A stretch of DNA of 60,687 nucleotides, counting the filler, from Dirinaria sp. TL-2023a (Eukaryota): the NCBI GenBank assembly GCA_051941275.1. It is 2 parts of 2 records of this genome, joined end to end, with 100 filler letters (N's around TTAATTAATTAA, not from the genome) between each part and the next. Parts side by side here need not be neighbours in the genome. Positions count along the whole stretch, not along the records: positions 1 to 30,296 come from JAVEBF010000101.1; 1 more part is not named here. One strand, 5' to 3'. Position numbers and translations under genes: made by a program. Positions 5,891 through 60,687 of the stretch are shown here, one piece after another. The notes beneath the pieces are model-generated. The model was not told the origin of the DNA. It searched no databases and saw nothing but the letters and a program-made list of their open reading frames with translations. Position 1 is the stretch's first letter. The number at the start of each line of letters is the position of its first letter.

Positions 5891-6645
5891 TTGGGTTCTA
5901 TCATCGTATGTATGACTCACTATGAAGATTTAAATGAAACAAGTACGACTGATTCAGTTGAATCACCAATCTGTGATCAAGAACACAGGCCAAAAAACAA
6001 GGTCCAAAAGGTGGGAAGTGGATGAAGTTCTATTGCCACCAGAAACTACCTAATATGCTAAATCTAATCACACGTGAAGGGAAGGAACCCCACATTGGTA
6101 GAGAAGGTAGTCACGCCGAACAATAGTCCTGGACCCTCAATATCTTTTAGGTGCTGGAGCACCTAAACCAAAGCGAGATATTCCCAGAGATTGCATCGAA
6201 GCAATCTTCACGAGATGCGAAATGAAGTCATTAGAATCTAAACATCGCTGTCGCGGTCGCTGGATGCATTGATTGCGATTTCCTTACCGGCGACACGATA
6301 ATGAGCGTCGATTGCTATGACTTTGAAACCGATGTTGGTCAGAAACCATTCAGTCATTCATTGAACAACTGATCAGTCGACAAACACAATGAGCTTGCGC
6401 TTACCGACGAAGCAGATAGGATATGCCATGTCGACGAGAAAACGAAGTTCATTCGAAATAACGTTTGAGTATCACATCATGTCTGCACAAGAAGCTGAGA
6501 GTTGAGTGTCAGAATTGACTCTCTGTCGTATGGTGATCTCGCTGACTGGTAAGATCCATGAGGGTGGGAGATGAGCCTTACCCCTAGGCGCTTGCCCTTG
6601 GATCCTCAGATACTCCCGTAACACTGACATTGAAGCGAAAAGCCA

Positions 6646-7290
6646 TCATCGGTAATCCGCTGTCGTATCACTCGCATCATATTTGTCGTCATCATTATCT
6701 TCATCTTGAATTTCGTCGATGAAAGGATCTGGACTGCTTGGCAATTGTAAGTTGAATGCTTTCAGGTTAGCAATCTTCTCTCCTAAGGTCTTCACTTTTT
6801 TTAAAGCCTTGCAGATCTTTGTAAACGAGCTTCTCATTCGCTCTGTCTCTGATCTTGATCTGTTCTTTGCTTCAGCGTTGATGGACATATAACGTCCCAA
6901 ATTTAGTCGTGTACTTGTACTGAGCTTCGAAATTTTCGCGAACTGCCTTTAATCTCTTGAGGACTTTCAGAATCCGGTCATCCCGCCTCTCTGGCAAAAT
7001 GTCGCAATTTCCAACTTCTCTCGTTGTCTTTGCTAGAGCTTTGTTCTCATTCGTGGGTTTGACTTTATCCCAGCGTCAACAATGTTTTTCTCACGATGTA
7101 TTCAGCTTTCAGTATTCTGTAATCCAGGTAATTCTGTACGTCTTGATAGCCGGAGTCGTCGGACACTTCTAGTATCCAGTGACGTGGACATGGAAATGTG
7201 CATTATTGTGTCGCTAGATCCTTACCGTGGCCGTCGTACTGCGCGAGCTTCGAAACCAGTGATCCCAGCCAGAACTTTTAGTTGGCGAGT
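6646..7290 (-). pseudogene. Degenerate intron-containing gene with coiled-coil/acidic C-terminus
   Basis: GTAAGG...CTAG intron at ~7225-7169 links GSLVSKLAQYDGH to EVSDDSGYQDVQNYLDY; frameshifts follow; acidic tail in ORF 6646-6900. Confidence 0.35.
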
Positions 7291-7999: not shown

Positions 8000-10900
8000 C
8001 TGTACTCTGAGAGCGTTTTGCAGTCAACGAGCGATCCGGGCCTGGGCCTTGATCGACAGTTTGTTCTTCGAAATCAGATCCACCAAGGAATACTCACTGT
8101 CTAGCTCTCGATGTATGAGCAGGGCTTTTCTTCTCGTAGAGGGTCAAACCCTCCATGGTATGATCCCACTTCTGATCGAGGAAAAGGTTGCCCAAACAGC
8201 TTCGTGAACATGAAGTTGAGTTTTGGACGAAGTATACGTTGGAACCGAGATAATTAGCTTGGAAACAAATGCTTCTTGATTTGGTAGCTTTTAATAGATT
8301 CTCCACTAGCCCAGGTGGCGCAGGATGGATGTAGGGTAATGGGAACTCTCACTATTGCATTGCCATTGCGTTGGCTCCAAATAGAATATACCTCGCTTTG
8401 GAGAACCCCAGAATACTCTCCAAGCTGCTGCTTGAGTACTGAGACATCCCGGAGTCCATCTTCAAACCGGGGGAGCCGAGCATGCTGCGAAATAGGGTAT
8501 GATTCGAAATTGGAAGCCAACAAACTCAGATTAACTTATGTTCAAATACAAAAGACGCTGGTGACGCCATATTGGCTAGAAATGGTCGATACTCTGGGCT
8601 TGAAGGTCTTCGTGTTGAAAACCGTCAAAGATTAATAACTTTGCCGATCTCGAAAACTTGTCCAATTCGTTTCAAACGCCTTAATCCAGAAGGCTAGTTG
8701 CGGCGATTCGCGTTCGAAGAGTGGACTCGACAGTATCCCTTTTTGAGATGACTTACTCTTCTATTTTTTTCGAGATCTTGAGCAAGACTTACTTTGCTCC
8801 AGTTTCAGTATGTGTCTCATTGATTATATATACGATCTCAATTTGAAGCGATGCTTGATCGTATGTCAAGAAGCAAAGAGGCTGCTTCGTTCAACATCAT
8901 GTTGTCTACTCCGCCGGCGATATAGAATATGAGCTCGATCCAAAAACAGCATCTGATGTGCTTTTAAGCATCGAAATTTGAAAGCGAGAGCGTGCGAATT
9001 CTAAGTCTGAGAGTCAGTCGAAATCCCGAGAAAAAAAGAGTTTATTTTCGGTAAGCTCAGTTGCTGACACGTTTCGATGTATTCGAGAGTGCGAGCGATC
9101 ACGAAGTTTAACTGTCTTTGAAATTTTCAAAAAATATTGCGATTTTGATCAAAGAGAGTTTTCAGATTGAGATTCAAGACGACGTCGAGCTAAACTTGTT
9201 CGAGAAAACGAAATTCGACGTCATTCGTCTGTCTCATGACGATTTCGGTACATTTTAAAATCTCTTCGATACTATGCACGATTAGATTTTTCGATCAGAT
9301 GATCTAAGCTTTCTTGCTGATTTTTAAAACGAGCTTTTCATGCTCGATCGCGCTGAAAGTGAGAAAAAAATTGCGAGGTTCGATACTTTTATTATGATCC
9401 GAGACGACATCGATGATTTTTTCGAGCTGTGTCGTCAGAATTTGAATAACCCTATCCTAATACTTTCCGTCGTACTGGCCGTTAAGTCCGGTCTGTCAGA
9501 ATCCATGATCTGGGTCCATCTCCTTGGAAAACGCTTCTGTGAGCCAGGCTTCGCGCCAGAATTTATTTCTCTCAGCTGTTGCTTGATTGCCAAAAAATCC
9601 CAAAGGTCTCTGAGATCTGTGCAGTGGGAGCAGAGCCTCTGAAAATGCTAATCTTCTTATCAAAAGATTTCTCGATGAGTTTGCATTGAGAGGAATTAAG
9701 AACCTAAAGCCCAAACTGTCGGATTTGAGCCAGCGATATTATTCTCGACGTCGATGCAAGATATGGATACGATGCACTAAAATGACGAGAAATTAAATGT
9801 TAACGCCGTATTTTCTTAGGCAGTCTGTAAACTAGGTAAGTTCCACTTTCGCGTAGAGGATAGCCGCTGTTTGTTCAGCTCGTTTCTATGAGAATTTTGA
9901 TAGCGCAGTAGCTGAAGTCAGGCGCTTTTTTAAGCAAAGTTGTGTCGTAAAAAAATTGAAGTGAGCCCTTATTTAAGCCATATCCTTGAGAAGAAGCGAG
10001 GTATTTGAATCGCTCAAAGGGGGTCAATGGGGTAGCTGGATCATCAGAATCTGGAAGGGTTGTTATGTGGGACTCTATGTCCAGCCGATGAGAAGGATTT
10101 GTTGCATCTTTTCTTATCGATTGATCGAATTGATATAATATATCCTTCTTCGAATGAGAGCGAAGTACTTGCTGACTCTAAGATCGTCGTACTTGCCATG
10201 TCATTGTGTGACGTTCTTGAACGTGTTCGGTTCGAGATTGAAGTTAAAGAAATAAAACCAGTTCAGCTTGAGATTGACGATGACATGACAGAGCCGACGA
10301 TAATCCCTCATGTTGCGCAGGTTAAACTCTTTCTGCTAGTGGTAATCTCGATTTGAAGTTTTTATCGTTTCCTGATGAATGCGAGCGTACAATTTCATCT
10401 CGTTCTCATCGATTTGCAGCTCGGCGTAAGATCGCTACGCATGAGAAAGGTCTTAATCGATACGCATAGGTTGATGTGCGACAAATTTTTATCATCGAGA
10501 CAAAAGCCCATCGCATTTGGAAAAGGGCAGAGAATGAACGGAAGAAGAACTCGATCGATATCCGAATCGATCTGTTCTCTCGAGACAAGTGGCTCAGATC
10601 ATCTGCGAGATGTCGTCAAGTCGAGAAATCAGCTATACTTCAGTAAAATGAGACTCGTGAGATCTCATCGCTTCCAGAATCGCCAGCGCGCTCTCGTGCA
10701 GGTTTCAAGTCGAGTAGGAATAGCTTTCGCATGGAAAGCTTGAATATAACTCGTGCAGCAGCAGAAATGAAAGAGCTGTTGCAACGACAGCGAGAACGTC
10801 TTCCTTTTACCAGTCGCTAGTAGAGGAAAAAGAACAGCGAAGCTGATGCAAGCGCAGAATGAGAGATTTGGATGCGACAGCGAGGAAGATGAAGCAGATA

Positions 10901-11300: not shown

Positions 11301-13479
11301 TCGTTCGCAGCTCATATTGTTCCAACGCAGATCAGGATTCAGACCGAGAGACTCGAAGTCGAATTGTCTTGAAGATCGGAGAAAGACTGCGAGGGAGGAA
11401 TCCAGTTCGAGTTGGTATAGCAAGCAGAAAGTTGAGAGTGAAAATTTGAGTTTCAATGTATGCTGTCGAAGATACCTACCTATATAATACTTAATTAGCT
11501 GACCCGAGACGGGGATTCACAAGTGCGTTCGTAAAGATCCACGCCTTCCGTTCATCAATCTCTGGGGACCAAGTGTGCGACTCAAGTGGCTGTGAACGCT
11601 GCAATTCAGTCGTCTTCCGAAAGTTACATGAGGGATTAGGGACATTTTGGCCCATGTCGTACTGAAATTCGCCGTCGCTCCTTCGTCACCGCTGTTAGCC
11701 ATCGCAATTGCCTATAGCACCATAGCAAAAGCGTGTAGCTAATCGCTGGGTTCATTGATTCTTGCAAAGATTTAGATAAATATAGAGACTATTTCAAAGT
11801 TGAACAGAAAATTGTACCCCAAGATGTTAATTCTTCTCTTTGAAGACATTGTCGTGGCCGTTGACTGTGAGGATGAAAGCTCAATTGCTAACACCACTGT
11901 CATATCCTTGCTGAGATCGATAGTATGCTAGTGTCGATATAAACGACATTGCACAGATTGCTATACGTCGTGGGCGGCAATTAAGGTAGGTACCTGTAAT
12001 GGGACAAACAACATAGCTTCTGCCGTCCCTTGAAACCCTTCCCGAGCTGCTCGCTGAATACGCGGATGACATGTCATGTCCCGTAAATCTTTAGCACGAG
12101 TATAGCGTTAGCTAAAAGCTCGTGTGTTGATCTGTCCACACGATCAAATGCTTTCACAATGATTCTCTTGACAGCCATTTCGTGATAAGGAAATAGGCTA
12201 GCGACAGAGTGATCGAGTTAGAATAATACGCATGTGCAACGATTGGACTCTGTATTAGAAGTGTAATGCCACTGACTTCGAACAGACTTGTGTTCGTAGA
12301 CTTTGTCAGATCTTTCTTATTCACAAGTTTCGTATTCGCTTTATTCTCTTTCGAGCGGCAGCAGCAGAGAACTATATCTGCTTCGTGTCAGTCCTCGACA
12401 TGACAATCATGAACGAGCGAAAAGCAATTTTCTTTTTCCCGTCGAACTCAGCGATTAAATTACGCGCGATAACATCGTCGCAGTTGAGACTCTGACATTT
12501 CGAGCTCGATGTACTGTCAGCGCGACACTGACACGTTTTGTTCAATAGTCACATTTTGCTCGTTCATCGATTTCACGACGAAAACGAAGATTCTTCGAAG
12601 TTGATAAATGATCAAGATAAAGAAAAAAAGAATGAACGTTACGTAAAAATTCATTTGATCGTCTGTAACGACTGAGACGAAATGAGAGACGAGATCGTGA
12701 TAATTGAGAACTCATTTAAAACGATCGATATTATTCGAGAACAACAAATCATGAGTCGCTATCGTCAATGCGACGAGTGTTCAAGCAGATGTGTTCCTCC
12801 ATAGTGTTGTGCCTATAGTGTTGCTCGGCACTAGCGTGGTTGCCTCGGTGAGTTCTACCTTATTAGAACTCACACACACACATACTTCATAGACTTCAGA
12901 CAATGCTATGCTTCATGTATGCCACCAAGTGCATTGCTCAGTGCTTCAACAACGAGTTCTTGATAGACGTCGACATACTTGTTCAAAATGATTCTATCAT
13001 TCTGCTCATAATTCGAATGAGCTCACTTCGACTTTCACATCATTCATCATGGAGATTGCGCTGTACGCATTGATTCTGTCGACGTTCAAACGAACAACAG
13101 CGAAATGAGTCAGAGTTTTCTTCGATTTCATTTTCTGAGCTTCATCAAGAACCACTCGAAAAGAAACCTCGAAACAATAAAATTGAACTTAATCGTTTTT
13201 CTCAGCGTTCAGCTCGTTCTCATCATTCCTTTGATCGGTATCATCATTTTTTTTTTTTTTGACTCACGAGTCCAGTTCGATATCATTCTTTGAAAAACCG
13301 CTCAAAATTTTAGATCGAGCGGGAAGAATCCTGCGCATCACGAGAGAAGAAAAGTTGAGTCTCTCAAATAGCTAGAAAACTTCTTGATAGCTCAAATCTT
13401 TAAGTTAAACCATGACTCATTGATACTCTTGGTAGCCATTATGTCTTAGTCGCGATCCCAAAATGTAATTTATAATATA

Positions 13480-17900: not shown

Positions 17901-19020
17901 TTTAAAGAGATTTAGATAGAATGGCTTAAGCTCTGAGCAAAGAGATTATGGAGAGCCAAGATCCTATAACAGGATGGCCAGGAGGTCATCTGCACGCTCC
18001 TGCACTGCAACTTTGAGGGTGATTTTCTAGCCGGGTCTGCCACAGATCTTATTCTGGAAATCCCACCGTGGAAATGGGCGCACGGGGCTGGCTCTGCTAT
18101 TCGGTACTGACTAGAAGAACTCGTCAGATTAGTACAGCTCAATACAGGCTCAACAGATTTCAATCTACTAACTTGTATCGTTCTCGAGTATAAGTACTTT
18201 GAACATAAGACATACTTCCCTTTTTCCTCGCTTGGATATTGCTGACGATGATTTGTGGAGGAGTTTCTCCACAGCAGGATCTATACGAAAGTAGTCATTA
18301 TCTTTCTTTGCAATACTCGTATCGATCACCGCAAAAGCGATTCTTGCCTCGAATTTGCGCAGATAATGTATCGATCTAAAGCGGAAAGTGCAACCCGGCT
18401 CAGCGAATCTCTTATCGATATTCTGAGTATTGCCATGGACTCAATTGCGCCTGCCTCTTGGATTCTTCAACCATGTCGTCTATTTCCATTTTACACTCGT
18501 ATGATGGTGCGTCTGGCGCACTTAGCACTTTCTTTATCAGGAATTTGCTGTAAACGACCGCTGCGTGAACCTCGAAATACTCCTTCAGCTGAGTACTCAT
18601 CATTTCCAGCTCAATATACTGTCATCGAGACTTCGATACATTTTATTCAATGATAGCATCACGATCATTGACGAATTTGATGACAGAAATGAAGATGCGA
18701 CGAAGCTGAAAGGTGATTAAGATCGGGGGGAAAAAAACGAGATCACGTGAGAATCCATTCGATTGCCGACGATGACCATCGAAAATGGATGATGAAATCT
18801 TGAGAATTGATGTATACTCAATTAGACGCAGGAGAAGAGAAGAAAGAAGTGTAGGTGCGGAAACAATCCGGTCGACAAAATTGTCCTGAAGACCCTTATA
18901 CAATGAATGCCATAATAAAATTTGAGTACTGAACACACTTTGGGGGTACCACTGAGTTGCTGCCCATGAGTAGACTCTCACCTGCTTATATTGAAAGCCT
19001 TAGTCTCACGTAAACAGGAG

Positions 19021-19924
19021 TTAGATCTTCCCGGCTAATACCTCTGCTGTCTTCTCATTGATAGCTCCTTCCTCGTCTTCTTCGTCGTCTTTTTCGAGAT
19101 CCCTTATCAGCTGTTTGAGCTGTATAGTCATGTTCTTGGCCTCCAGACTCTGCCAGTCACGGCGCATCTGGAGAGATGCTTGCTTTATGTCAAGCGCCTC
19201 TTCGTCGTCGGGTTTGAAAGAAAAAAGCTGAAGAAAATGCACTCGACGACGAGGTGCACATGCGGAAATTGAATCTTCCGATAAGTGGTCAATTCACATT
19301 CGGACAATTCTTTGAGGTGGCCCACCTTCTTACATTTGTTGCAAATTCCTTTGTCTAAGTTTGGACATTCTGAATTGATCGTATGACCAAATGCTTTACA
19401 CCGAGCAAAATGATAGTCATGCCCTTAGCCTCCATACTCTGCCAGTCACGGAACATCTGAAAAGATGCTTGCTTTATGTCAAGCGCCTCTTTGTCGGCGA
19501 AATTGGGAAAGAAAGCTGATATATATGAAACGTACTGACCAGAGACGTGCGTATACGGGCATTCAATCTTTGGATAAGGGGTTAATTCGCATTCGGACGA
19601 TTCTTTGATATGGCCCACCTTTTTGCATTTGTTGCACATTCTTTTGTCTGAATTTGTCCATTCTGGATTGATAGTATGGCCAAACTCTTTGCAACGAGCA
19701 CAACGAAGGGCGAAGTTATCATGGTCTCGATGGCCAACTTCTACACACCTATGATAAGTCTTCTGACCGTTTTTTTTTTTTTTTTTTTTTCACTCCACGC
19801 ATTTACAGGCCACATGGTCAATGCTGCTGCAATTTCGACAGACTACGCTGCCTGTTTGCTGCTCTTGTTCTTCGAGGAATTTTAGAACCTTCGTAATAGC
19901 TAACTTGAGGTAAGTGCCGCTCAT
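19021..19924 (-). pseudogene. Multi-CCHC zinc-knuckle protein gene, disrupted
   Basis: Knuckle-like motifs CRNCSSIDHVACKC, (Y)HRCVEVGH, CARCKEFGHTINPE(W), CNKCKKVGHIKESSEC, CKAFGHTINSEC and CNKCKKVGHLKELSEC. Interrupted by a stop, a 21-nt homopolymer (19770-19790) and frameshifts; acidic C-terminus. Confidence 0.65.
19124..19690. repeat. Diverged ~290-bp tandem duplication (2 copies)
   Basis: 19124-19397 aligns with 19413-19690; shared blocks include ACTCTGCCAGTCACGG, AGATGCTTGCTTTATGTCAAGCGCCTCTT and TGGCCCACCTT. Many differences are transitions. Confidence 0.9.
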
Positions 19925-20254
19925 AGAGTTTCGCTTGAACAGTGTAGACGACCTTCTTTCGGTTGTAGTACGTAAAAACAATATGCTCAAAAAGAATTCG
20001 CCGGGCGACAACAGCCTAATGGCGTTTTTGCAATGGAATTCTTATAAATATGGAGACTTAAGTAGTGATGTTTAAGGCTATATCCTTCTGTCATTCCTCA
20101 GGAGTGGAAAGCCAGCTCTTAGTAGTCACTGTGAGGGCCTTGCGTGAACTTGCGTTTAGAAGTAGATGAAAGATTGACTTAGCAAATGTTAGAATTATGA
20201 GAAAGTATATATAAGAGTTTCAAGCTGTCAAAGCATTCGATCATTTGTATAGGA

Positions 20255-21002
20255 TTAAGTGTGCTTCTTCCTCGATGTACCACGGTCCGTCGTCATGTTG
20301 TCAATATTGTTGATTTGGGTCGCGTACATTAACACGGTGTAGTTCAGGTCTGAGTCTTTGAACGATTTGAAGTCAAAGTAATTTTTTACTCTTAGGCTAG
20401 AGATCTCAAAATATCTTTTCGTAAAATAAGAGCTTGTTCGCACTTGGTGAAGCCAGATGGCTAAGAGGTCTGTCAATTAGCGAGCGAGCATTGAATACCA
20501 AGAACAATTTAACAAGACTCATTGAAATACCACTGCTGATAGTAGTGAGTTTCAGTTGCCAGAGCGAGTCAAAAGATGGATTGGTCTCGAAGAAAAACGC
20601 CTCGCGCCAGATCTCCGCTTGTTTCTTACCAACTCTTGAAGCCTTGTGTCTATTAGAGCTAAAGACTTCTGTATTGTATTCTCTTGTCCCTGTTGCAATC
20701 AGTGATCTTGTTCGAGAGCAAATTTGAAATCTGAGACTAGGTGAGAAATGCGAAGTATCGAAAAGATGATCTATTCTGACGAAGAATCGAACTTCTTTAG
20801 CGCATTTATTGAAGTAGTGAGATTCGACGCGAAGATCAGCAATTGTCGAGACGAGGTAAGCAGCGATCGTTGACTCGAGAGAAGCAACGTTTGTAAAGTG
20901 AAGAGGGGGGTTCGAAGCGGAAGGGTAGGAGGTGAATGCGAGAACGCTAGTTATCGTTGATGCTTGATCTGCAGACAAATGAATTAATCTTAATTTCGAC
21001 AC
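20255..21002 (-). pseudogene. Degenerate gene of unknown family
   Basis: 198-codon frame without ATG (20406-21002) that continues past stops as ...IVQRLRPELHRVNVRDPNQQY*QHDDGPWYIEEEAH; CC/GG-poor. Confidence 0.35.
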
Positions 21003-23856
21003 AAAATGCTTTCAATGACTTAAGATAGAAGCCTTCAGTCTTGAAAATCGTCGGAAAAGAAAGAGGTTGAGAAAGATCCATTTCCTGGAGATCAACGTAT
21101 TAGTTCCTATTGATTGAGTAAAGGGAGAGAGAATCACCTTTCACAACGCCTACCAAGCTTGACAATGGCTCCCATGTCAGGCATGTTTGACATTCGACTT
21201 CATGTTCCAAGCAATATACCTTGCCTCACGACAAATACATAGTAAATGGCCAATTGCTTTACCCGCACGAAATCTGAGGTAGAACATCAATTTTGTCTTC
21301 AGCACGTTTTAAGATCTTGGACAGTCGATCGTCTGATTTTGATGGTCTTGAGAAGCGATTTGATAGAGTATCATTAGGAAAAAAGCAATGTGAATAGATG
21401 ATCAATCCGAAGGAAGCATTTTGAAAACATGGTTAGAAGAAGGCCCATATCCATCTAGAGACACAAGATGTATATAGTACAAAGCAGACAACAAGAATTT
21501 CATATTCGTCGTTGCAAGAGCAACGTTAGAAGAAACCAAAAGCCATATAACAGTCCTCTGCTGATTTAATGTTGGTTGCCGAGCAGAGAATTTCAATAAT
21601 TGAACAGCATGATAGCTGTCGAATTTCGAAGTCAGAAGAGCCTAAACCAGAAAACTAACTACTAAAAATATTGATGCGACTTACGAAGCGAAGATCGAGG
21701 AGGATTTGAGAACAGACATTATGTGAAAAAGATCGCATACCAGCGATCGTGAGCATGTGGCAATTCACCAACACGCTGTGGATCCCATGACTGTTTACGT
21801 CTATAAGTTTGACGTCAGTCAAACAGAACAATAAGAATGCGATCTGCCAACTCGAGCTTCCGATTACGGTGGTTCCGAGTGTCATAGTCCCGATTGCCAC
21901 AGTCCCAGTTGCCATAATTCTGACTTCGATGGTCTCGACTGTCGTAGTTCTCTGACTCTGCAAGTGGGGTTCATACTGATTGGCGAAAATCTGAAGACAA
22001 AAGAGGTTCTAGTTGCAGTCTAAGTAATAATTATTGGAAACAGTCTTGGCTCACTTCTCTGATTTCGATATGCCTCAAGTACCTTGGTCTGCTCAAGAGC
22101 ATGGCGTTTTGTGAGAAGTTCTCGGCCTCTGAGGAAGCCACTTTACTTCTCGAATTCTAGTTCGGCGAGCGCCAGCAGTTGATTGTCGATGCGTCACGCG
22201 TTTCTGAAAGCGGCAGCCTGTGTAAGGAGTTGGGTGACAATTTGTAACTTTGAAGGCCCGGGAAGAGCTAGTGATTAGCTGCGTCAGCTCAGGCTGCGAC
22301 ATTATAAGTAAGGAATGTCAAGATTATTACAAAGTTATTAGATCCAAACGTTATGAAAGTTGAAAATCGTTAGATGAAGCATGGAAACAATAAGCAGTGA
22401 TTCTTCGCTTTTGATCAGGTGTGAAGGCGTTGTCGAGAACCTGTAATGAAAGGGACAGCATGACGATCCCGGTGTACGGTGTTCTTGATCGAAGTGGCCG
22501 CAGTGATGAGTCTTCAATGGCCGAATCATGAAGTCATCTTGGTCAGGCAAGACTTGCTGCTATCAGCGAGTCGAAGAGGTAACAAAACCTCTTTGATCCT
22601 TTCATTCAATTCACGAAGACGTTCATGTTCTGAGGAGCTCCGACCCTGCGAGATGCAAATGTCTCACTAGACAAGCTATCAGCAGTCGTGAAGGCTGCCA
22701 TTTGCTGCAGCACTTCAAAGATAGGATTCTAGACTGATAACAACTTTTCAGCTGTTACAGTCGGTTTCAAAGCAGTGACTTGCGATCTCGCCCGTCGGTT
22801 GTCTCATGCGCTGACAAAGTTCTGGTTTCAAAGTACATCATCAATTCCTGACACAAAAATATTGACGAAATGAGATGACTATTCCATCTTATAGACGCCA
22901 TTACCTCATAGACGACTGCTCAGCGTGGTATCAATATGATGATCCAAAAACAAATCATGAATTGAACAAGAGAAATGAGGGAATGCGCTGATATAATTAG
23001 CCCGGATGCTCGAAACTGCTAGATCTGGTCTTCATGTGATACGGCTCCTTTGAGGGCTCAGGCGCATGGAATCTCCTTAGTATGTAGGTGAAAATAGTGA
23101 GATCATCCTAGTAGTATAATTGCTGTGATCTTTCGACGCATGTAAGCTTCCAAGCATTATTCCATTTGACTAGATCTTCCCCTAAAAGCTTTTTCCAGCT
23201 TCATCTGGCCACCAAAGCCAAGTTACAAAGTACAGTAAGATCGCTCTTCTCAGCGGATGAGCTTGTAGGCTGCTTTCACACAGTATGAGCTCGCAGTTTA
23301 AGATCGTGATATGCAGTACAACGAGTTTAATGAGTTATAGATTCACCATTGAACCGTTCAATCCATTTTTCGCCACGAATTGACTTCGAAAAGTTACTGT
23401 CTCCTTTACTCTCGACGCTAGGAGTATATCTTTGATCGAAGTATTAACGCGAACTTTGTACGACAGTAAATGTAAATTCTGTTTCACAAGGATCATTTTT
23501 TGAGAGAGAGCCACACCTAGGAACTTTCTCTTACAAGCGTAGCAATGAATATTGAGTTACCATCAAATACTGTCGAGTGAGCTCTAGCTTTGGCAGGTAT
23601 GTGCACCTGGAAACATCTAGAAATGGCTTTGTGCATCCTTTGGCGTTTCAGTCGAATTTTCGCCCTCCGATCCGCGCGAATAATTGCAGCGTCTTCTAAG
23701 GTTGAAGCGTCAAATCTTTGAGCAGTCGGTAGTGTTGAAAGTAAGCGTTCAAATTACTTTATCGAAAACGTCCGCGTTGCGCGTTTGGGGAATTTTTATT
23801 CCAGGAGCTTCTTTCTTGTTTGCTTTGCCAAATCTCGATCAGCTACAGGCGTTAGT

Positions 23857-30296: not shown

Positions 30297-30396
30297 NNNN
30301 NNNNNNNNNNNNNNNNNNNNNNNNNNNNNNNNNNNNNNNNTTAATTAATTAANNNNNNNNNNNNNNNNNNNNNNNNNNNNNNNNNNNNNNNNNNNN
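30297..30396. other. Artificial contig-join linker (44 N + TTAATTAATTAA + 44 N)
   Basis: Exactly 100 bp and symmetric; the palindromic TTAATTAATTAA supplies stops in all six frames, a standard concatenation spacer. Confidence 0.97.
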
Positions 30397-33300
30397 AGAC
30401 CATAGACTGCGGTTTCCGCCGCCGCCCCGAAGGCCGGGTGATGATGAGATCGTCGTCGTCGTCGTCGTCGTCTTCGCTTCCATTCGCGCTGTCTGCTTCT
30501 TCTCCTTCTTCTCCGCTAGCGAGAGTCACAGCCTGTACCTTATCCCGCAACCCATGATCCCGTGACGAAACCCCCTGAGCCTTGATCTGTGAAGGAAAAG
30601 AAGAAGATGGAACATGCGGTGAAGATAGCGGGGTCTCAGTCATCGCGTGATCCGCACTGCTACTGGCCGACAACTCACGTTTCGCCCGTGATGGCGATGG
30701 CGGTGGTGGCGGCGAGGAAGAAGAAGATGCCGCAGCAGCAGCAGCGTCATCACCACCACCACCATCGAGGAACATGATATCTGCATCCGCCTCCTCTTCC
30801 GAAGAAGAAGCAGGAGGAGGCGAAGAAGATCTTCTTTTCTTCGATGATCCACGCGCGTCGTGAAGGATTCCTCCCTTCCTTTTCGCCTCCTTCTTCGCAA
30901 CACCCTGCACGCCCTCCGCTTTCTTCTGCACTCTCCCCGCTTTCAGAGCCTCCATCACCCGTCCCGCTTGCCCCTTTCTCCTCTCTTCCTCCTTCCTGAA
31001 GAATACCGCGTCAGCTTCGCTGTCGCTGTCGCTGTCACCTACGAACTCGGCGCTCTTGATCTTCAGCCGTTTCTCGAGATCGGCCGCTAAGCGAGCCTTT
31101 CGTTTTTGCTCCCGCGCTTCGTCGTCATCGTCGGGAGTTGCTTCTTCGTCGTTGCCGGTGCCGCTGTCGCGCCTGCGCCGTCTGCGCTTTTTCTTGAGTT
31201 TTTGCAGCGCGTCTGACCGGCGGGTTTTATCGTCCACCGGCCCACCGGGGGGGAACAGGAAGCCTTCTTCGCCATCATCTGTTCTTGCGCCTTCCGAGGA
31301 GGAGTCGTCGTCGTAGTCCGCTCGCTTCTGCCTCGCAGCCGTATTTGGTTTTCGTCGGAGCATTTCTGCTGCGTCGAATTCGCCGGTGTCGCCATATTGC
31401 ATAACTGGGTCTCGGCGATGTCTGTCGATGCAGTCGTGCGTCTCCTGGAGCTCGCGCGCTGTTAGACTGGAGGGGACGATCCAGGTAGCTCCGGGCTCGT
31501 CATCGACGCCGAGCCGCTCGAAGTCGGAGAGGGTCATAAGGAGCCGGAGTTTGGCATCTTTGAACATGGCCGTGGCGCGATCTGGGGTGTCTGCGTTGAC
31601 AACTGAAACGCCACGAATCAGTACGTTTGCCTCGCAAGTCATTCTGGTTCTGTGCTTACCGATGGTTGGCGGTTTCACTTCACTGTCCTCGTTCTCCGGA
31701 TCAAGATTCTCGCCAGCCTCCGCTCTCGTCGCCGCAGCTTCGGCCTCCCAGCTCTGTCGCTCACTCCCAGCTTCACTCAACACCTTCGCAACCCAATCGA
31801 CGTGCTCGATCTTCTCATCATACAATGCCGCGACCACAACACCAATTTGCTCTTCTCTTGTCATCTCACCCTTAACCTCGAGCGTTGCCGGTGCTCTCGG
31901 CTTCGAAGCTACCGTCTGCTCCTCATAGCCGTATTCCAAGTAAAACACCGTTGATCTTATCTTACTGAATAGTAATTCGACGGCCAATTCAGGCCGCTGC
32001 TGCATCTTCTTCACCAGTTTCTTAAGCAGCTGCCTCACCAACTCGTCCCATTCCTTAAACATTGATGCTGCTCTATCGAGACCCTCGGGACCTTTGATGA
32101 TGCGATAAAAAAGCACAATGATATCAAGGCGAAATAGCATGACGCTCAATTCTTGCTTGAAAGCGACTCTATAAAAGAAGCGGTGTGCACGCTTTAGCTG
32201 CTCGGCGTTGAGGTCGCTGTAGTACTTGGTGAAAGCGACGAATGCGTCGACACAACCTTGAGTCATGAATTTGGCTGAAAAGCGAGTGAAGTCGAACTTG
32301 CGCTCTTTGGACACGCGTTGTGCCTCGGCTATCTCTTCCATCTCAGATGCGTTATCTGCGTCATTTACATCATCAGTTTCACCGTGCTGCCTTGCGGCTG
32401 CGGCTTTCTTGGATTTGCGAGCTCTCCGCCGTGAGCGGACCTGAAGATCGACGTTCTCGCGGGAGTACCGCTCCAGCATGCGCAGGAAGACGTGTGAGAG
32501 CTCGGTGCAGGAGTCAAGATAACCAAAACCTTGGTCTTGGTACGTGCGAAGGATGGCGATGATACGGTCGTGGGTGGTTTCTTCGTAAAAGATGCGATTC
32601 TGTATGTTTTCCGCGATGTCTTGGTCTTCTTCGACCGGCGACTCCGCCATGTCCTGTACGATTAGCAGAATTTGAGTAAAGCAGCGCATACCAGCGTGGA
32701 CGTCTCGCCATGCTTTCATGTCTAGGCGATCTTGCATGAAACGGTTCAGGAGGACGAATGTTTCTTGATTGAGAACGCTGGCAACTAGAGCGAAGCTGTC
32801 GGCTTCGAAATCCGTGATGATTTTGTCTTGGACTTTTTTCTTCTTTTTGTCAGCTTCAGCTTTTCTCCTTCGACGCGCGCGCTCGACTTCGAGGAACCAG
32901 GAAACGAGGTAGAAGTATTGTTGTGCATGGGCTTCGAGGACCCGATCAGCTTCACGCTCAATTGCTTTGCGAATGTGGTTAAATAGCGGGTTGAAGCTGG
33001 AGTCGAGGAACTCTTCGACGAAGGAGCGTAGGTGGCGGTTTGCCGCTTCTGACAAGGGAACCGGGAGATCGAAGCGGTCCGAAGACTGTTCGCTGTCCTT
33101 GGAGCGTTGTTTGGGCTTGTTCCATTTCTTGCTTTCGTCCATCTTCTTCAAGGTCTTTTCTTGATCCTTCAATACATCCTGGCCTGATACAGTCGACATC
33201 CCTCGAGCATTGTCACGCTGTACCCATATCATTGTGCCAAAGCGATTGTGCCGTGTTGGTGCTATTTTGGCATAGCCTCTGTGCATATTTGCTTCCTTCC

Positions 33301-34281
33301 TCAGCAGTGACTTTAATTGATCTGTATGTGAGGCATCTCTCTGTTCATTGTCCATGAAAAGCTCCTCTACGTCAACACCTTTTAGTAGATGGAACAAAAC
33401 TTCTAGTATTACAGTGTCTTGGGTCTTGAACTCATCACCAACATTTGATGCAATAGTAAGTAGAAGCGCTAAGACTTCCTGTTTGTGGAATGCTTCAATG
33501 GTTGCCGACCTCGAAATATCACCGTGGTTGCCCTCGACTGGCAAATTTGGCGGCGCTGCGACCATGGCGACATTTCTGAAGAAGTACAGCAGGAGCTTCA
33601 TAATACCTTCATCTCTAGAACTTCGATCCCCAGCTGGGAGCGCCATAGAAGGAAGCCCAATGCGCACCGCGGTTCTAAGAATGGCTGCGTCATGCTGGAT
33701 AATTGCTCGCTTGTATCTTGTCTGCGCCAATTGGAGATATGGGACGTGGCGATGATGATTGACAGTCATCTGCATTTCGGTTTTGTCGATTGGCCATGTC
33801 AATGGTACCAAAAGCTCTACTGCACAATCATCAGTTAACCTTGGTTCCGAACTGTGCTCATCCACTCACACGCTGCCAGTGCAATCTTCGAAGCCAATCT
33901 ATCCTCAGTTGCCTCCTCTGGCCATGCGGCCAAAATCTCCAACAAGTCGCCATTGACCAGATTGGCCTCGGCAAGACACCGTGCAACGTCCAGCCGGTTC
34001 GCTTTCTCATCGTATAGCTTGAGCCATTTCTTGATATCTTTCAGACAGGCTAATGCGTCGTCACCGAGAACGTAGCGACCATCTTCGTCGGCACCGTTAC
34101 CTCCAAGCTATGTGTATAAATGAGTAAAGCCGCTGCTTGTGATGATTGTAGATTGACGTACCGCAGAGACGAGGCTATAAACATACGCTCGCACTTCGGG
34201 ATCGACTGTGCTATATGACTTGGGATCAAGGGAAGTGTCGCCCCCATACGTTGGCACGGCATCTTCTTCCTCCATGTCCAT
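30397..34281 (-). CDS. TOF1: Topoisomerase 1-associated factor 1 (Tof1/Swi1/Timeless), replication fork protection complex; 3' end cut by the gap
   Basis: N-terminus [18 protein letters not shown]...[18 protein letters not shown]; Timeless-type segments [35 protein letters not shown] and [14 protein letters not shown]; acidic/basic tail. Introns near 34.11-34.16, 33.82-33.87 kb and at 31603-31659. Confidence 0.95.
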
Positions 34282-34354
34282 AACCGAAACATGAAAGCTC
34301 AATTGTTACAGTCGATGATTCCATGTCAGGAAGTTCATTGATTGCTTGGCACAC

Positions 34355-34375
34355 ACGCGGGTGCACGCGACGCGT
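34355..34375. promoter_or_regulatory. MCB (MluI cell-cycle box) cluster upstream of TOF1
   Basis: ACGCG (34355), ACGCG (34365) and ACGCGT (34370), 75-95 bp upstream of the ATG of a G1/S-type gene. Confidence 0.7.
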
Positions 34376-34547
34376 CACAATGCCAAGACTTTCACATGCT
34401 TGGCTCTTGGGATGCCCAAGGAGAAAGCGCAGAGTCACTAGGGAAACACTGTCGGAGGAACACCCCAAAGTCAGGATCGCTTGCTTATTATTCAAGAGTC
34501 AAGTTGAAGCTGCCAATGATGACCCTGATTCAGAATATAGATATGAA

Positions 34548-35658
34548 TCAATAATCGTAGAAGCCTTTTCCACATTTCTTCCCCACCCATCCGGCATCGA
34601 CCATCTTCGATAGCAGCACGCTTGGCCTGTACTTGGAATCACCCGTTTCCGTGTGTAAGACCTTCATGATAGCCAAGCATGTGTCGAGGCCGATGAAGTC
34701 TGCCAGCTGCAGTGGGCCCATGGGCACACTTGTTCCGTTCTTCATGATGTTGTCTATATCATCTCTCCCACCTACGCCTGTCTCAAGGCATATTATCGCT
34801 TCATTAATATAAGGCATCAAAATTCTGTTTGCAAGGAATCCAGGAGAGTCTGCGGATCGCGATGGTACCTTGCCCATTTTCTCCACGAACTCCATAGCGG
34901 TGTCAACGGTGTCCTGCGAAGTCTGCAGCCCAGTAATGATCTCTACACCCTTCTGGACTGGTACTGGATTCATAAAGTGGGTACTTATGACTCTTGATGC
35001 CGTAGTGACGTCCGTAGGGTCATCCTTTGGCGTAGTCGAGGCCGCGATTTTAGTAATAGATATCGATGAGGTGTTGGTGGCGAGTATGGCGTGAGAAGGG
35101 GCGATCTGAGCTAATTGCGAGAATATCGAAGTCTTGAGATCCAGTGATTCTGGTACTGCTTCTATTATGAAGTCTACCGAGGCAAGATCTTCCAGATTCG
35201 TGGTAGGTGTAAGGCGCGACCGGGCTTCGGAGGCTTCGGATTGGGACAGGCGTGATTTCGAGACATCTTTCTCGAGAAGCTTGTCTACAATAATCAGATT
35301 AGCTGCAAGATTCCACATGTAGAAAGGCTGAACACTGGGAGAAGCCTGACCTGCGAACTTCAAGCCTTTGTCGATTGCGGCTTGCGAATTATCCACCAAC
35401 GTCACCGGGATTTGAGCCTTTTGAGCCGCCACGAGTGCGATACCTAACCCCTTATCTCCTTCAATTAGCTCTCGTATACCTACAGGATGAGCACGTTGAA
35501 TAGGCAATACGAACCATCTGACCAGCTCCTACTACACCCAATCTTTTGACCTCTGCTGCAACCATTGAGGAACTTGAGCTGAGAGCTCGATGACGAAATG
35601 CCACGGGCGGATTACCCAGGCCGCGAGCACAGGTTCTAGATAAGCGAGGCAATATCAT
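34548..35658 (-). CDS. 3-hydroxybutyryl-CoA / 3-hydroxyacyl-CoA dehydrogenase, probably mitochondrial
   Basis: Arg/Ser-rich presequence, Rossmann motif LGVVGAGQM|GLGIA, then IIEAVPE, ATNTSSISIT, HFMNPVP, PGFLANRIL, PMGPLQLADFIGLD and GKKCGKGFYDY; two introns. Confidence 0.95.
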
Positions 35659-43839: not shown

Positions 43840-45200
43840 AGGAAATGGAAAAAGTGAATTTTCATAACCCCTTTCTTTATTTCTTGCTTGCTTGCTTGTT
43901 GTGTTCTATGGATTTTTGGAAGGGGAGGTATCTATCACCATTTTTAACTTTTCATTCATTCATTATTCAGTCTCTGTATGTAGATGGATCTCTTCTCGAC
44001 TACTTACTCTGTTGTACTTTTCACACAAATTTTTTTTTTTTTCCCCCCCTTGTTCGCTCACATCTCCCCCTCTCTCTTCGTGCTCGTGTTCCCCGTACAC
44101 TCAATCGTAAGGCATACAATGCAACCTTTCCTGTTTTTTGGGAGGAAGGATTCCCGGTCGATGGTGTATTACTCTTCTCTCTCTGATCTTGAGAGGGGAG
44201 AGTGGGGAGTTAGAGTGAACTTTAGAGGAGGGAGAGAGGAAGAAGGAAATGCTGATTTCGTTTCTATAGGTCTTTTTAGGCTATTTTTGTTTTGTTGAGG
44301 AAGAAGGTATACATACACGAGCTCTTTGGCTCTTGATATATACACCTGTTAAATTTTCGCGATGGAAACGTATACCAAATAACTAATACCATTCTATCAT
44401 GATCCTGATCGTAGTGTTTTAGTGTTCTAGGGGAAAATCATCGATTGATAAAGGAAGGAGAGAGGGGGGGGGGTTGTTTTGATGTTAATCTTGAATTCTC
44501 GGTTCGATATTGATATCGGTACTAGTATTGGGGTATAGAATAGAATATATATGAACAAAGGAAGCAAGAGGTAGATATTTATCCCACACGAGACTCGAAA
44601 CGAAAAGAGAAAAAAGAAAAAGAAGAGCAGGTAACTCTCATATGCACATATAGTCACTACTACACTACCTCCCCTCTCAAGTGCCCTCTCTCTCAAAAGG
44701 CCCGAGCAACATAACGAGGAGGAAACAAGACATCCGATTTTTTTTTTTCTTTTCTTTTTTGTTTCTTTCTTTTGCGGCATAGCATAGCATGAGCATACTT
44801 TAGGATTTTATCAAACTATGGGTGGGTATATTATGTACATACACAAACCAAACCAACCGACTAATACCCCAGATTCCACAAAACAAACACGCAAAAACTC
44901 ACGAGTTCTCGAAAGCCAAAGCCAAAGCCTCTCGAGAACCTTTCTTTTTGTAGCAAAGGACTCGCACGGGTCGGGGTTTTGGACGTGGGAAAGAAAAAAG
45001 GGAGTTCCTGTGATTTAAAAAAGAAAAAAAGATTTCTTGTTCTTATCACACAATTCAAGAAAGCTTCGAAGAAGAAGCTAGCTAGCTACTACGCCCACGG
45101 CGGCATGTTGATTGATCGCCACGCGCGCACTTTTCTCTCTCCCTCTCTCCCTCTCATATGCTGATGAAACCATTCCTCTCTCAACTTCTCTGAAACCAAG
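43840..45200. repeat. Low-complexity homopolymer/microsatellite-rich region between convergent genes
   Basis: Numerous poly-T, poly-A and poly-G runs plus CT/GA repeats between the 3' ends of the 40617 gene and eIF4G. Confidence 0.7.
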
Positions 45201-60384: not shown

Positions 60385-60687
60385 AAGATCCCAAGAGAGA
60401 GAGAGAGTATGCGTGTGAAGTTTCTCACACAATGAACCTTACCTAAGTAAGATACCTTACCTTAGTCTGTTGGGTCGGCGCATTGAGAGTACTCATACCA
60501 GTACTCGTACTTATCTGGGTACCTTAGTGTAGTGTAGTGTAGATTGGGGTTCGCATACGGATCGATACTCCGGAGCCAAAAAAGAAAAGAGCGAAGTATG
60601 AGATAATCTGAATTATCTCTTTTTATGGACGTTTGTTTTTATCTTGTTTTTTTTTTTTTTTTTTTTTTTAATTTTTGTTTTTTTGGC

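Follow-up and report, generated by a model that had tools for sequence, protein, structure and literature searches.

Segments free of CC and GG dinucleotides in a probable Lecanoromycete genome: a footprint best read as CpC-directed C-to-T hypermutation

The window and its tracts without CC and GG

The DNA examined here is a stretch of 60,687 nt from Dirinaria sp. TL-2023a (the window), in which several tracts lack the dinucleotides CC and GG entirely or almost entirely. The window is fungal and made of two contigs, with an N join at 30297-30396. From about 24 kb onward its big open reading frames (ORFs) encode a PQ-loop protein, Timeless/Tof1, eIF4G, a 3-hydroxyacyl-CoA dehydrogenase and a flavin monooxygenase-like protein. 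Heterodermia, Physcia, Letharia and Cladonia, all Lecanoromycetes, supply the closest named relatives of two proteins of this gene-rich half, other database entries reach 82-87% identity, and by these matches the host genome is that of a Lecanoromycete, a lichen-forming ascomycete. All of the tracts lie in a gene-poor block at 1-23500 with lower GC content (0.43 overall and 0.41-0.45 per stretch, against 0.47-0.59 beyond), where CC/GG is mildly low even outside the tracts. Ordinary fungal genes at 24-30 kb sit on the same contig.

The core tract, at 12440-12796, is a maximal run of 357 nt without CC or GG, enriched in CG, TC and GA and depleted in TA. A preliminary description of this DNA had noted the absence of CC and GG across 12441-12795, with CA/TG and CG plentiful, and both statements are borne out. 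Within those 355 nt, CC is observed 0 times against 11.9 expected, GG 0 against 15.8, CG 32 against 13.7 (2.3-fold), GA 43 against 25.3, TC 29 against 17.3 and TA 15 against 32.0, with CA (21 against 21.9) and TG (21 against 20.0) at expectation. Expected counts were derived from the tract's own base composition, which predicts ~28 CC+GG where none is present, so that base composition alone, raised at the outset as a trivial explanation, does not account for the depletion. The tetranucleotide TCGA occurs 7 times (strand-symmetrised 14). No tandem repeats were found in the tracts, whose sequence is complex.

In 300 dinucleotide-preserving shuffles of positions 1-23,500, the longest CC/GG-free run averaged 118 nt (standard deviation (sd) 16.5, maximum 181). 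None reached 357 nt, nor the 197 nt of a second CC/GG-free run at 9051-9247. Similar tracts had been proposed at ~1455-1545 and ~9053-9245; the latter exceeds every shuffle, whereas the run at the former (1451-1549) is only 99 nt long and within chance taken alone. Considering single dinucleotides, CC-free runs span 9027-9399 (373 nt), 12440-12796 (357 nt) and 20690-21032 (343 nt) where density predicts a longest run of ~180-200 nt, and the GG-free run at 12358-12827 (470 nt) is an outlier against the same expectation.

To delimit the tracts, a two-state hidden Markov model (HMM), contrasting gene-rich transitions with transitions transformed by CC>TC and GG>GA, was run over the whole window. 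It assigned nine segments of 1-23,500, totalling 2,919 nt, to the hypermutated state; in 100 shuffles of the same region the mean total was 233 nt and the maximum 1,120, with none at the observed value. Only three large segments (log-likelihood ratio (LLR) 33-55) are individually secure, as short segments also arise in 66 of 100 shuffles. These are 12271-12796, which encloses the core tract and has 4 CC/GG in 526 nt (LLR 55.1), 8740-9447, with 12 CC/GG in 708 nt (LLR 53.7) and including the CC-free and CC/GG-free runs near 9 kb, and 12933-13409, with 10 CC/GG in 477 nt (LLR 33.1). The weaker segments at 1956-2297 and 2600-2858 (LLR 14.5 and 14.7) are too short for individual reliability; others are 1452-1616, 10542-10674 and 18611-18711. 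The last segment, 20697-20904 (LLR 21.3), falls within the strand-asymmetric tract at 20690-21032, which has no CC over 343 nt and retains 12 GG (25 expected). Across 24-60.7 kb the model found nothing beyond the N gap and the poly-T end.

The edges are abrupt: after 357 nt with 0 CC/GG, density and HMM both mark an island of normal CC/GG density at 12797-12932 (136 nt), beyond which depletion resumes. Within the island are a (CA)6 run, two copies of a 9-nt direct repeat (ATAGTGTTG) and a palindrome with a 10-bp stem (GAGTTCTA...TAGAACTC). Its predicted fold is modest (z -2.0), and no second copy occurs within the window. It may be an insertion, either unique and passed over by the process or acquired later. 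The surviving CC/GG sites (n=42) showed no clear additional context.

Which cytosine changes

We simulated six saturating models, one of them no change, on gene-rich DNA from the window itself (GC 0.51). For each model 400 gene-rich segments were drawn at random, and their mean distance from four tracts was taken across ten dinucleotide classes that are strand-symmetric. The best was a model in which the 5′ C of CpC changes, that is, C before C becomes T and G after G becomes A (CC>TC, GG>GA), with distances (x100) of 5.3-10.8. The 3′-C model (CC>CT) gave 11.2-16.2 and trailed in all four tracts; no change gave 13.7-20.1, CpG decay 14.9-22.1, CpT>TpT 17.2-20.2 and CpA>TpA 21.6-25.2. The 5′-C simulation yields GC 0.39 and observed/expected ratios (o/e) of 1.55 for CG, 1.74 for TC+GA and 0.45 for TA; the corresponding measured values are 0.37-0.42, 1.55-2.35, 1.53-1.70 and 0.43-0.52. 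It also correctly predicts a gain of AA+TT, a drop of GpC from 6.9 to 3.8% (3.1-5.0% in the tracts) and a gain of ApT from 6.2 to 9.1% (7.9-9.3%). At the trinucleotide level, the pooled tracts correlate with transformed gene-rich DNA at r 0.93, against 0.41 for untransformed DNA, and for the 50 trinucleotides without CC or GG the values are 0.87 and 0.53.

Paralogous sequence within the window provides a second line of evidence. Searching 1-24.5 kb against itself with blastn (exact, sensitive) and six-frame tblastn revealed only two related pairs. In the first, 12481-12707 of the core tract matches a diverged paralogue at 18586-18810 (65.8% identity over 228 nt, E 1.9e-19) with overall normal CC/GG. 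The second is a tandem duplication, 19124-19413 and 19413-19706, with a unit of ~290 nt, 79% identity and minus-strand ORFs that resemble CCHC zinc knuckles. No additional unit of this repeat was alignable; a scan of metagenome contigs with paralogous-ORF alignment gave 595 pattern matches, none confirmed, and a 23-letter consensus pattern gave 0. The large tracts other than the core have no copy within the window and are also mutually dissimilar, so they do not form one family.

When C/T differences are normalised by opportunity (per available context site), both pairs point to CpC. Between 18576-18820 and 12471-12715, the tract reads T at 8 of the 12 sites where the former copy has C before C, and at 20 of the 84 where its C stands in another context (Fisher p 0.005). 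The 18.6-kb copy shows CC/GG where the tract shows TC, GA, TT or AA. With both directions counted, C before C in the tandem pair differs as C/T at 12/49 sites against 25/207 elsewhere (p 0.04), with a modest CpC bias in both copies. Sorted by 5′ neighbour there is no enrichment (C after C, 5/49 against 32/207), and the enrichment by 3′ neighbour alone agrees with a CpN-type rule. Model fit and tandem-pair contexts thus both indicate that the target cytosine is set by its 3′ neighbour.

The proposal of the preliminary description, C>T at CpC on both strands, is therefore upheld by the best of six models and by context-normalised comparison of paralogues. Such a CpC-directed change probably produced the tracts, and hypermutation from C to T, directed at CpC, is the best reading of a footprint that covers ~3 kb of one window. 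The direction of the change, the enzyme class, the dependence on homology and the timing are what we infer from it.

The decayed sequence and its surroundings

The depleted block at 12271-13409 probably represents an SNF2-like gene of the minus strand that is now dead, an assignment that we offer as a lead and not as family membership. A 60-codon ORF remnant at 13009-13188 (minus strand) resembles SNF2-family helicase motifs II-III in Pfam and ESM Atlas searches. Its 'VLDEAQ' stretch we take to be helicase motif II, presumably followed by a degraded motif III. The match to Pfam SNF2-rel_dom (E 0.012, 15.2 bits) lies below the cut-off of 24.9 bits and declines to 12.1 bits (E 0.1) with the frame read through. 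The first ESM Atlas match is an SNF2-related cluster (score 0.93; 176/256 features; 19/30 matches), and a PDB search returned six chance-level matches only (best E 0.23). A by-eye impression that 6241-6948 (minus strand), read with TGA as Trp, might be the start of an SNF2 C-terminal helicase domain found no support, Pfam (E <= 0.1) and protein searches both being empty.

Little else in the block could be named. None of 36 ORFs of at least 90 codons in 1-23,500 had a Pfam match at E <= 0.01; 9 of 126 shorter ORFs matched, all below threshold and none at the family cut-off. Reading through TGA as Trp gave no Pfam match for eight ORFs of the block and only noise in six frames of the two main depleted blocks. 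The block yielded no tRNA, Rfam family or notable tandem repeat, and profile searches of its ORFs and frames found no reverse transcriptase or integrase remnant. The ORF of the paralogous copy, at 18643-18999 (minus strand), had 0 phmmer matches among 1.84 billion proteins and no usable match in ESM Atlas. Minus-strand ORFs at 19185-20041 carry CX2CX4HX4C-like zinc knuckles (three motifs over 19.2-20.0 kb; zf-CCHC sub-threshold in Pfam), a pattern that hints at gag-like or zinc-knuckle gene debris. The TGA stops at ~17.5-17.65 kb, cited earlier as backing for C>T at CpC, carry no weight: six of nine stops in one frame are TGA, but so are 1154 of the 2315 stop trinucleotides across the block, and the proportion is accordingly uninformative. 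So is the 11 of 16 in the presumed frame of the 12-kb relic, and TGA read-through lengthens ORFs no more than TGA's half share of stop trinucleotides predicts.

Several features of the gene-rich half may be recorded. Timeless and the 3-hydroxyacyl-CoA dehydrogenase adjoin each other (30341-35528), and their best matches in Heterodermia aff. obscurata have locus tags two apart on one contig of 113,832 bases, so local gene order seems conserved. Within the intact Timeless ORF, 31001-33000 shows CC+GG o/e down to 0.63-0.72 and CG up to 1.24-1.31 (8.0 CG per 100 nt over the whole ORF), which probably reflects acidic/serine-rich coding sequence and not mutation; moderate CC/GG depletion by itself is thus not diagnostic. 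At 44001-45000 GC is low (0.41) with the bias reversed (CC+GG o/e 1.27, GC o/e 0.63). The join consists of 44-base N runs at 30297-30340 and 30353-30396 with 12 bases between them, and the part after the gap has 30,291 bases. The window ends, at 60578-60687, in DNA of GC 0.21 with a T run of more than 25.

Possible origins and comparison with known systems

APOBEC-type deaminases read the 5′ neighbour of the cytosine, and the DNA-methyltransferase-like enzymes behind repeat-induced point mutation (RIP), the RID type, read the 3′ neighbour. With the target set by the 3′ neighbour (CpN logic), a RIP-type mechanism with a RID/DIM-2-like enzyme is the most likely. Such a process would have started from ordinary DNA of ~50% GC, probably part of the pseudogenised minus-strand SNF2-like gene. 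Near-saturating C-to-T change at C before C on both strands would have struck segments of 0.2-0.7 kb with sharp boundaries, inside the decayed gene-poor block of 23 kb, leaving neighbouring genes untouched, and an enzyme whose preference has shifted to CpC may have acted repeatedly until the dinucleotide was exhausted. Limits of homology would fit both the sharp edges and the spared island, if the island is unique to this copy. A role in genome defence is plausible; for a homology-triggered defence of the RIP type with CpC specificity, which silences duplicated DNA and keeps CpG, we estimate a probability of roughly one in three.

A number of observations weigh against this reading. The CC/GG class is zero by tract selection, so the models draw independent evidence only from the other nine dinucleotide classes, and the core tract departs from the 5′-C model by a CG excess (z 2.3) and a CT+AG deficit (z -2.7). 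Transitions account for just 37 of the 58 and 55 of the 83 mismatches in the two paralogous pairs (64-66%), and most C/T differences fall outside CpC, so that other processes dominate the divergence of the pairs; between the 12-kb and 18-kb copies the largest class is CpG, with CG in the tract and TG/CA in the 18-kb copy at 14 sites. The pairs are two-sequence comparisons without an outgroup, which leaves the direction unproven. The 18.6-kb paralogue is not depleted overall, while RIP normally hits both copies, although its homologous part does carry the CC/GG-free stretch of 101 nt (18611-18711). Timing raises a further difficulty. Of 1,071 possible single changes in the core tract, 249 would create CC or GG and none is present, from which we infer that the tract has diverged by less than ~3.6% since it was last purged (Poisson 95%). 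Its divergence from the sole visible partner nevertheless amounts to 35%. Either a closer copy exists elsewhere, which a homology trigger would need, or the process is recurrent, or it is independent of homology. Finally, tract GC falls only to ~0.39, against the ~16-35% described for DNA hit by RIP in Cladonia.

Independence of homology is the essence of an alternative that we regard as unlikely, namely chronic, context-biased mutation of a heterochromatic block, for example by CpC-preferring non-CG methylation followed by deamination. It would accommodate a tract purged long after it split from its only visible paralogue, and the modest CpC bias of both tandem copies. It also agrees with the mild depletion of the block outside the HMM segments, where CC+GG o/e is 0.82 and (CC+GG)/(TC+GA) 0.52, against 0.96 and 0.76 in the non-ORF parts of the gene-rich half (CC+GG o/e 0.93-0.96 for that half). 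However, very sharp edges and an unaffected island of 136 nt are unexpected from a domain-wide process, and CG is fully kept, so that methylation, if any, must avoid CpG. In Neurospora, moreover, even DIM-2-dependent mutation requires homology, according to the literature.

It is rather improbable that there was no hypermutation at all, the tracts being a mobile-element or foreign family natively without CC/GG or a product of selection against these dinucleotides. An unmutated ancestor for comparison is lacking, and a first-order Markov model of 1-23.5 kb in which CC/GG is forbidden already gives 17.0% TC+GA (sd 1.6) against 20.5% observed. The same null is too low for CG (5.1, sd 1.0, against 9.3) and too high for GpC (5.2 against 3.1), whereas host DNA transformed by the 5′-C rule fits all four tracts better, down to their trinucleotides. 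The CC/GG of the 18.6-kb homologue at tract positions reading TC, GA, TT or AA, and the mutual dissimilarity of the tracts, likewise speak for hypermutation over native composition.

It is very unlikely that a cytosine deaminase edited single-stranded intermediates, be it retroelement cDNA or a strand under transcription or replication, before or during integration. Such editing would explain the strand asymmetry of 20690-21032 and the nearby gag-like CCHC ORFs, but both strands are depleted in the main tracts, the block has no recognised reverse transcriptase or integrase remnant, and the 3′-C model fits worse. The product is TC/GA and not CT/AG, hence a target set by the 3′ neighbour, unlike CC>CT of the APOBEC3G type. 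That the tracts arose as an artefact of assembly or sequencing, or sit on a chimeric contig derived from another organism of a lichen metagenome, is scarcely credible even for a window of two contigs with an N join, since tracts and ordinary fungal genes share one contig and we know of no error mode in which substitutions remove all CC/GG over hundreds of bases and leave the flanks intact.

Detection of RIP commonly relies on low GC and on indices built on TpA. Were a lineage to mutate CpC instead, its relics would keep moderate GC (~0.39) and a high CpG ratio, would not become AT-rich and TpA-rich, would escape standard RIP scans and would mislead gene and repeat annotation. RID-type enzymes would then be able to switch their reading of the flanking base completely, offering a natural variant of specificity with which to ask how RID/DIM-2-type or other deaminating enzymes read the base beside the target C. 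Lichen fungi are hard to cross, and such footprints are among the few windows on genome defence in their sexual cycle.

Among known systems, APOBEC3G edits retroviral cDNA at the 3′ C of CC (CC>CT, read as GG>AG) on one strand. It resembles the present case in cytosine deamination at CC and in leaving hypermutated dead copies. The tracts show the 5′ C converted (CT+AG o/e 0.76-1.16 against 1.53-1.70 for TC+GA), on both strands in three of the four tracts compared, and with the poorer 3′-C distances we reject APOBEC3G-like CC editing as their cause. O6-alkylguanine mutagenesis (temozolomide, SBS11) causes G>A at purine-G. It would give GG>GA and secondarily AG>AA, in keeping with the CT+AG deficit of the core tract, but chemical damage is not expected to saturate bounded segments of 0.3-0.7 kb and spare their flanks.

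Neither canonical RIP nor methyl-CpG decay had seemed to fit in the preliminary description, and the indices concur. The canonical RIP thresholds, as quoted in the literature, are TpA/ApT > 0.89, (CpA+TpG)/(ApC+GpT) < 1.03 and a positive composite index; the core tract has a TpA/ApT of 0.45 and a composite index of -0.46, and the composite is -0.47 to -1.04 in the other tracts, which excludes canonical CpA RIP as the cause. Methyl-CpG decay is excluded by a CG o/e of 1.55-2.35 with CA+TG at or under expectation. The related expectation that standard RIP indices would miss the signal holds for Margolin-type indices but not for RIPCAL, whose paper counts CpC>TpC among four formal possibilities with a matching index, (CpC+GpG)/(TpC+GpA). 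This index is 0.00 in the core tract and 0.83 in the gene-rich half.

RIP has been described in other lichen-forming fungi. Published work reports a GC peak near 16% in RIP-affected DNA of Cladonia rangiformis, with RID and DIM-2 homologues, large RIP-affected regions in Xanthoria, and canonical indices of 1.47 and 0.70 in Endocarpon, a lichen-forming Eurotiomycete. No account of CpC-dominant RIP turned up in the literature searched, which included few subscription journals, so that its absence is not proven. According to a review, the order of RIP preference is CpA > CpT > CpG > CpC in N. crassa and CpG >= CpA, CpT > CpC in T. reesei. CpC, last in both published orders, comes first here, an inverted preference, and TpA/ApT and the composite index differ in the same tracts. 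In other respects the tracts resemble RIP as it occurs in N. crassa and other Pezizomycotina (RID-/DIM-2-dependent): probable C-to-T and G-to-A changes on both strands, a target picked by the 3′ base, bounded segments in which the preferred dinucleotide can be exhausted, and dead genes in lower-GC, gene-poor blocks beside intact genes. Precedent for a context that varies with lineage comes from RIP-like mutation biased to CpG or TpCpG; the RIPCAL paper cites a CpG/CpA bias in Aspergillus nidulans, where MATE elements are affected, and a TpCpG bias in Microbotryum, where Ty1/copia elements are. Those systems deplete CpG, whereas the tracts described here keep and relatively enrich it.

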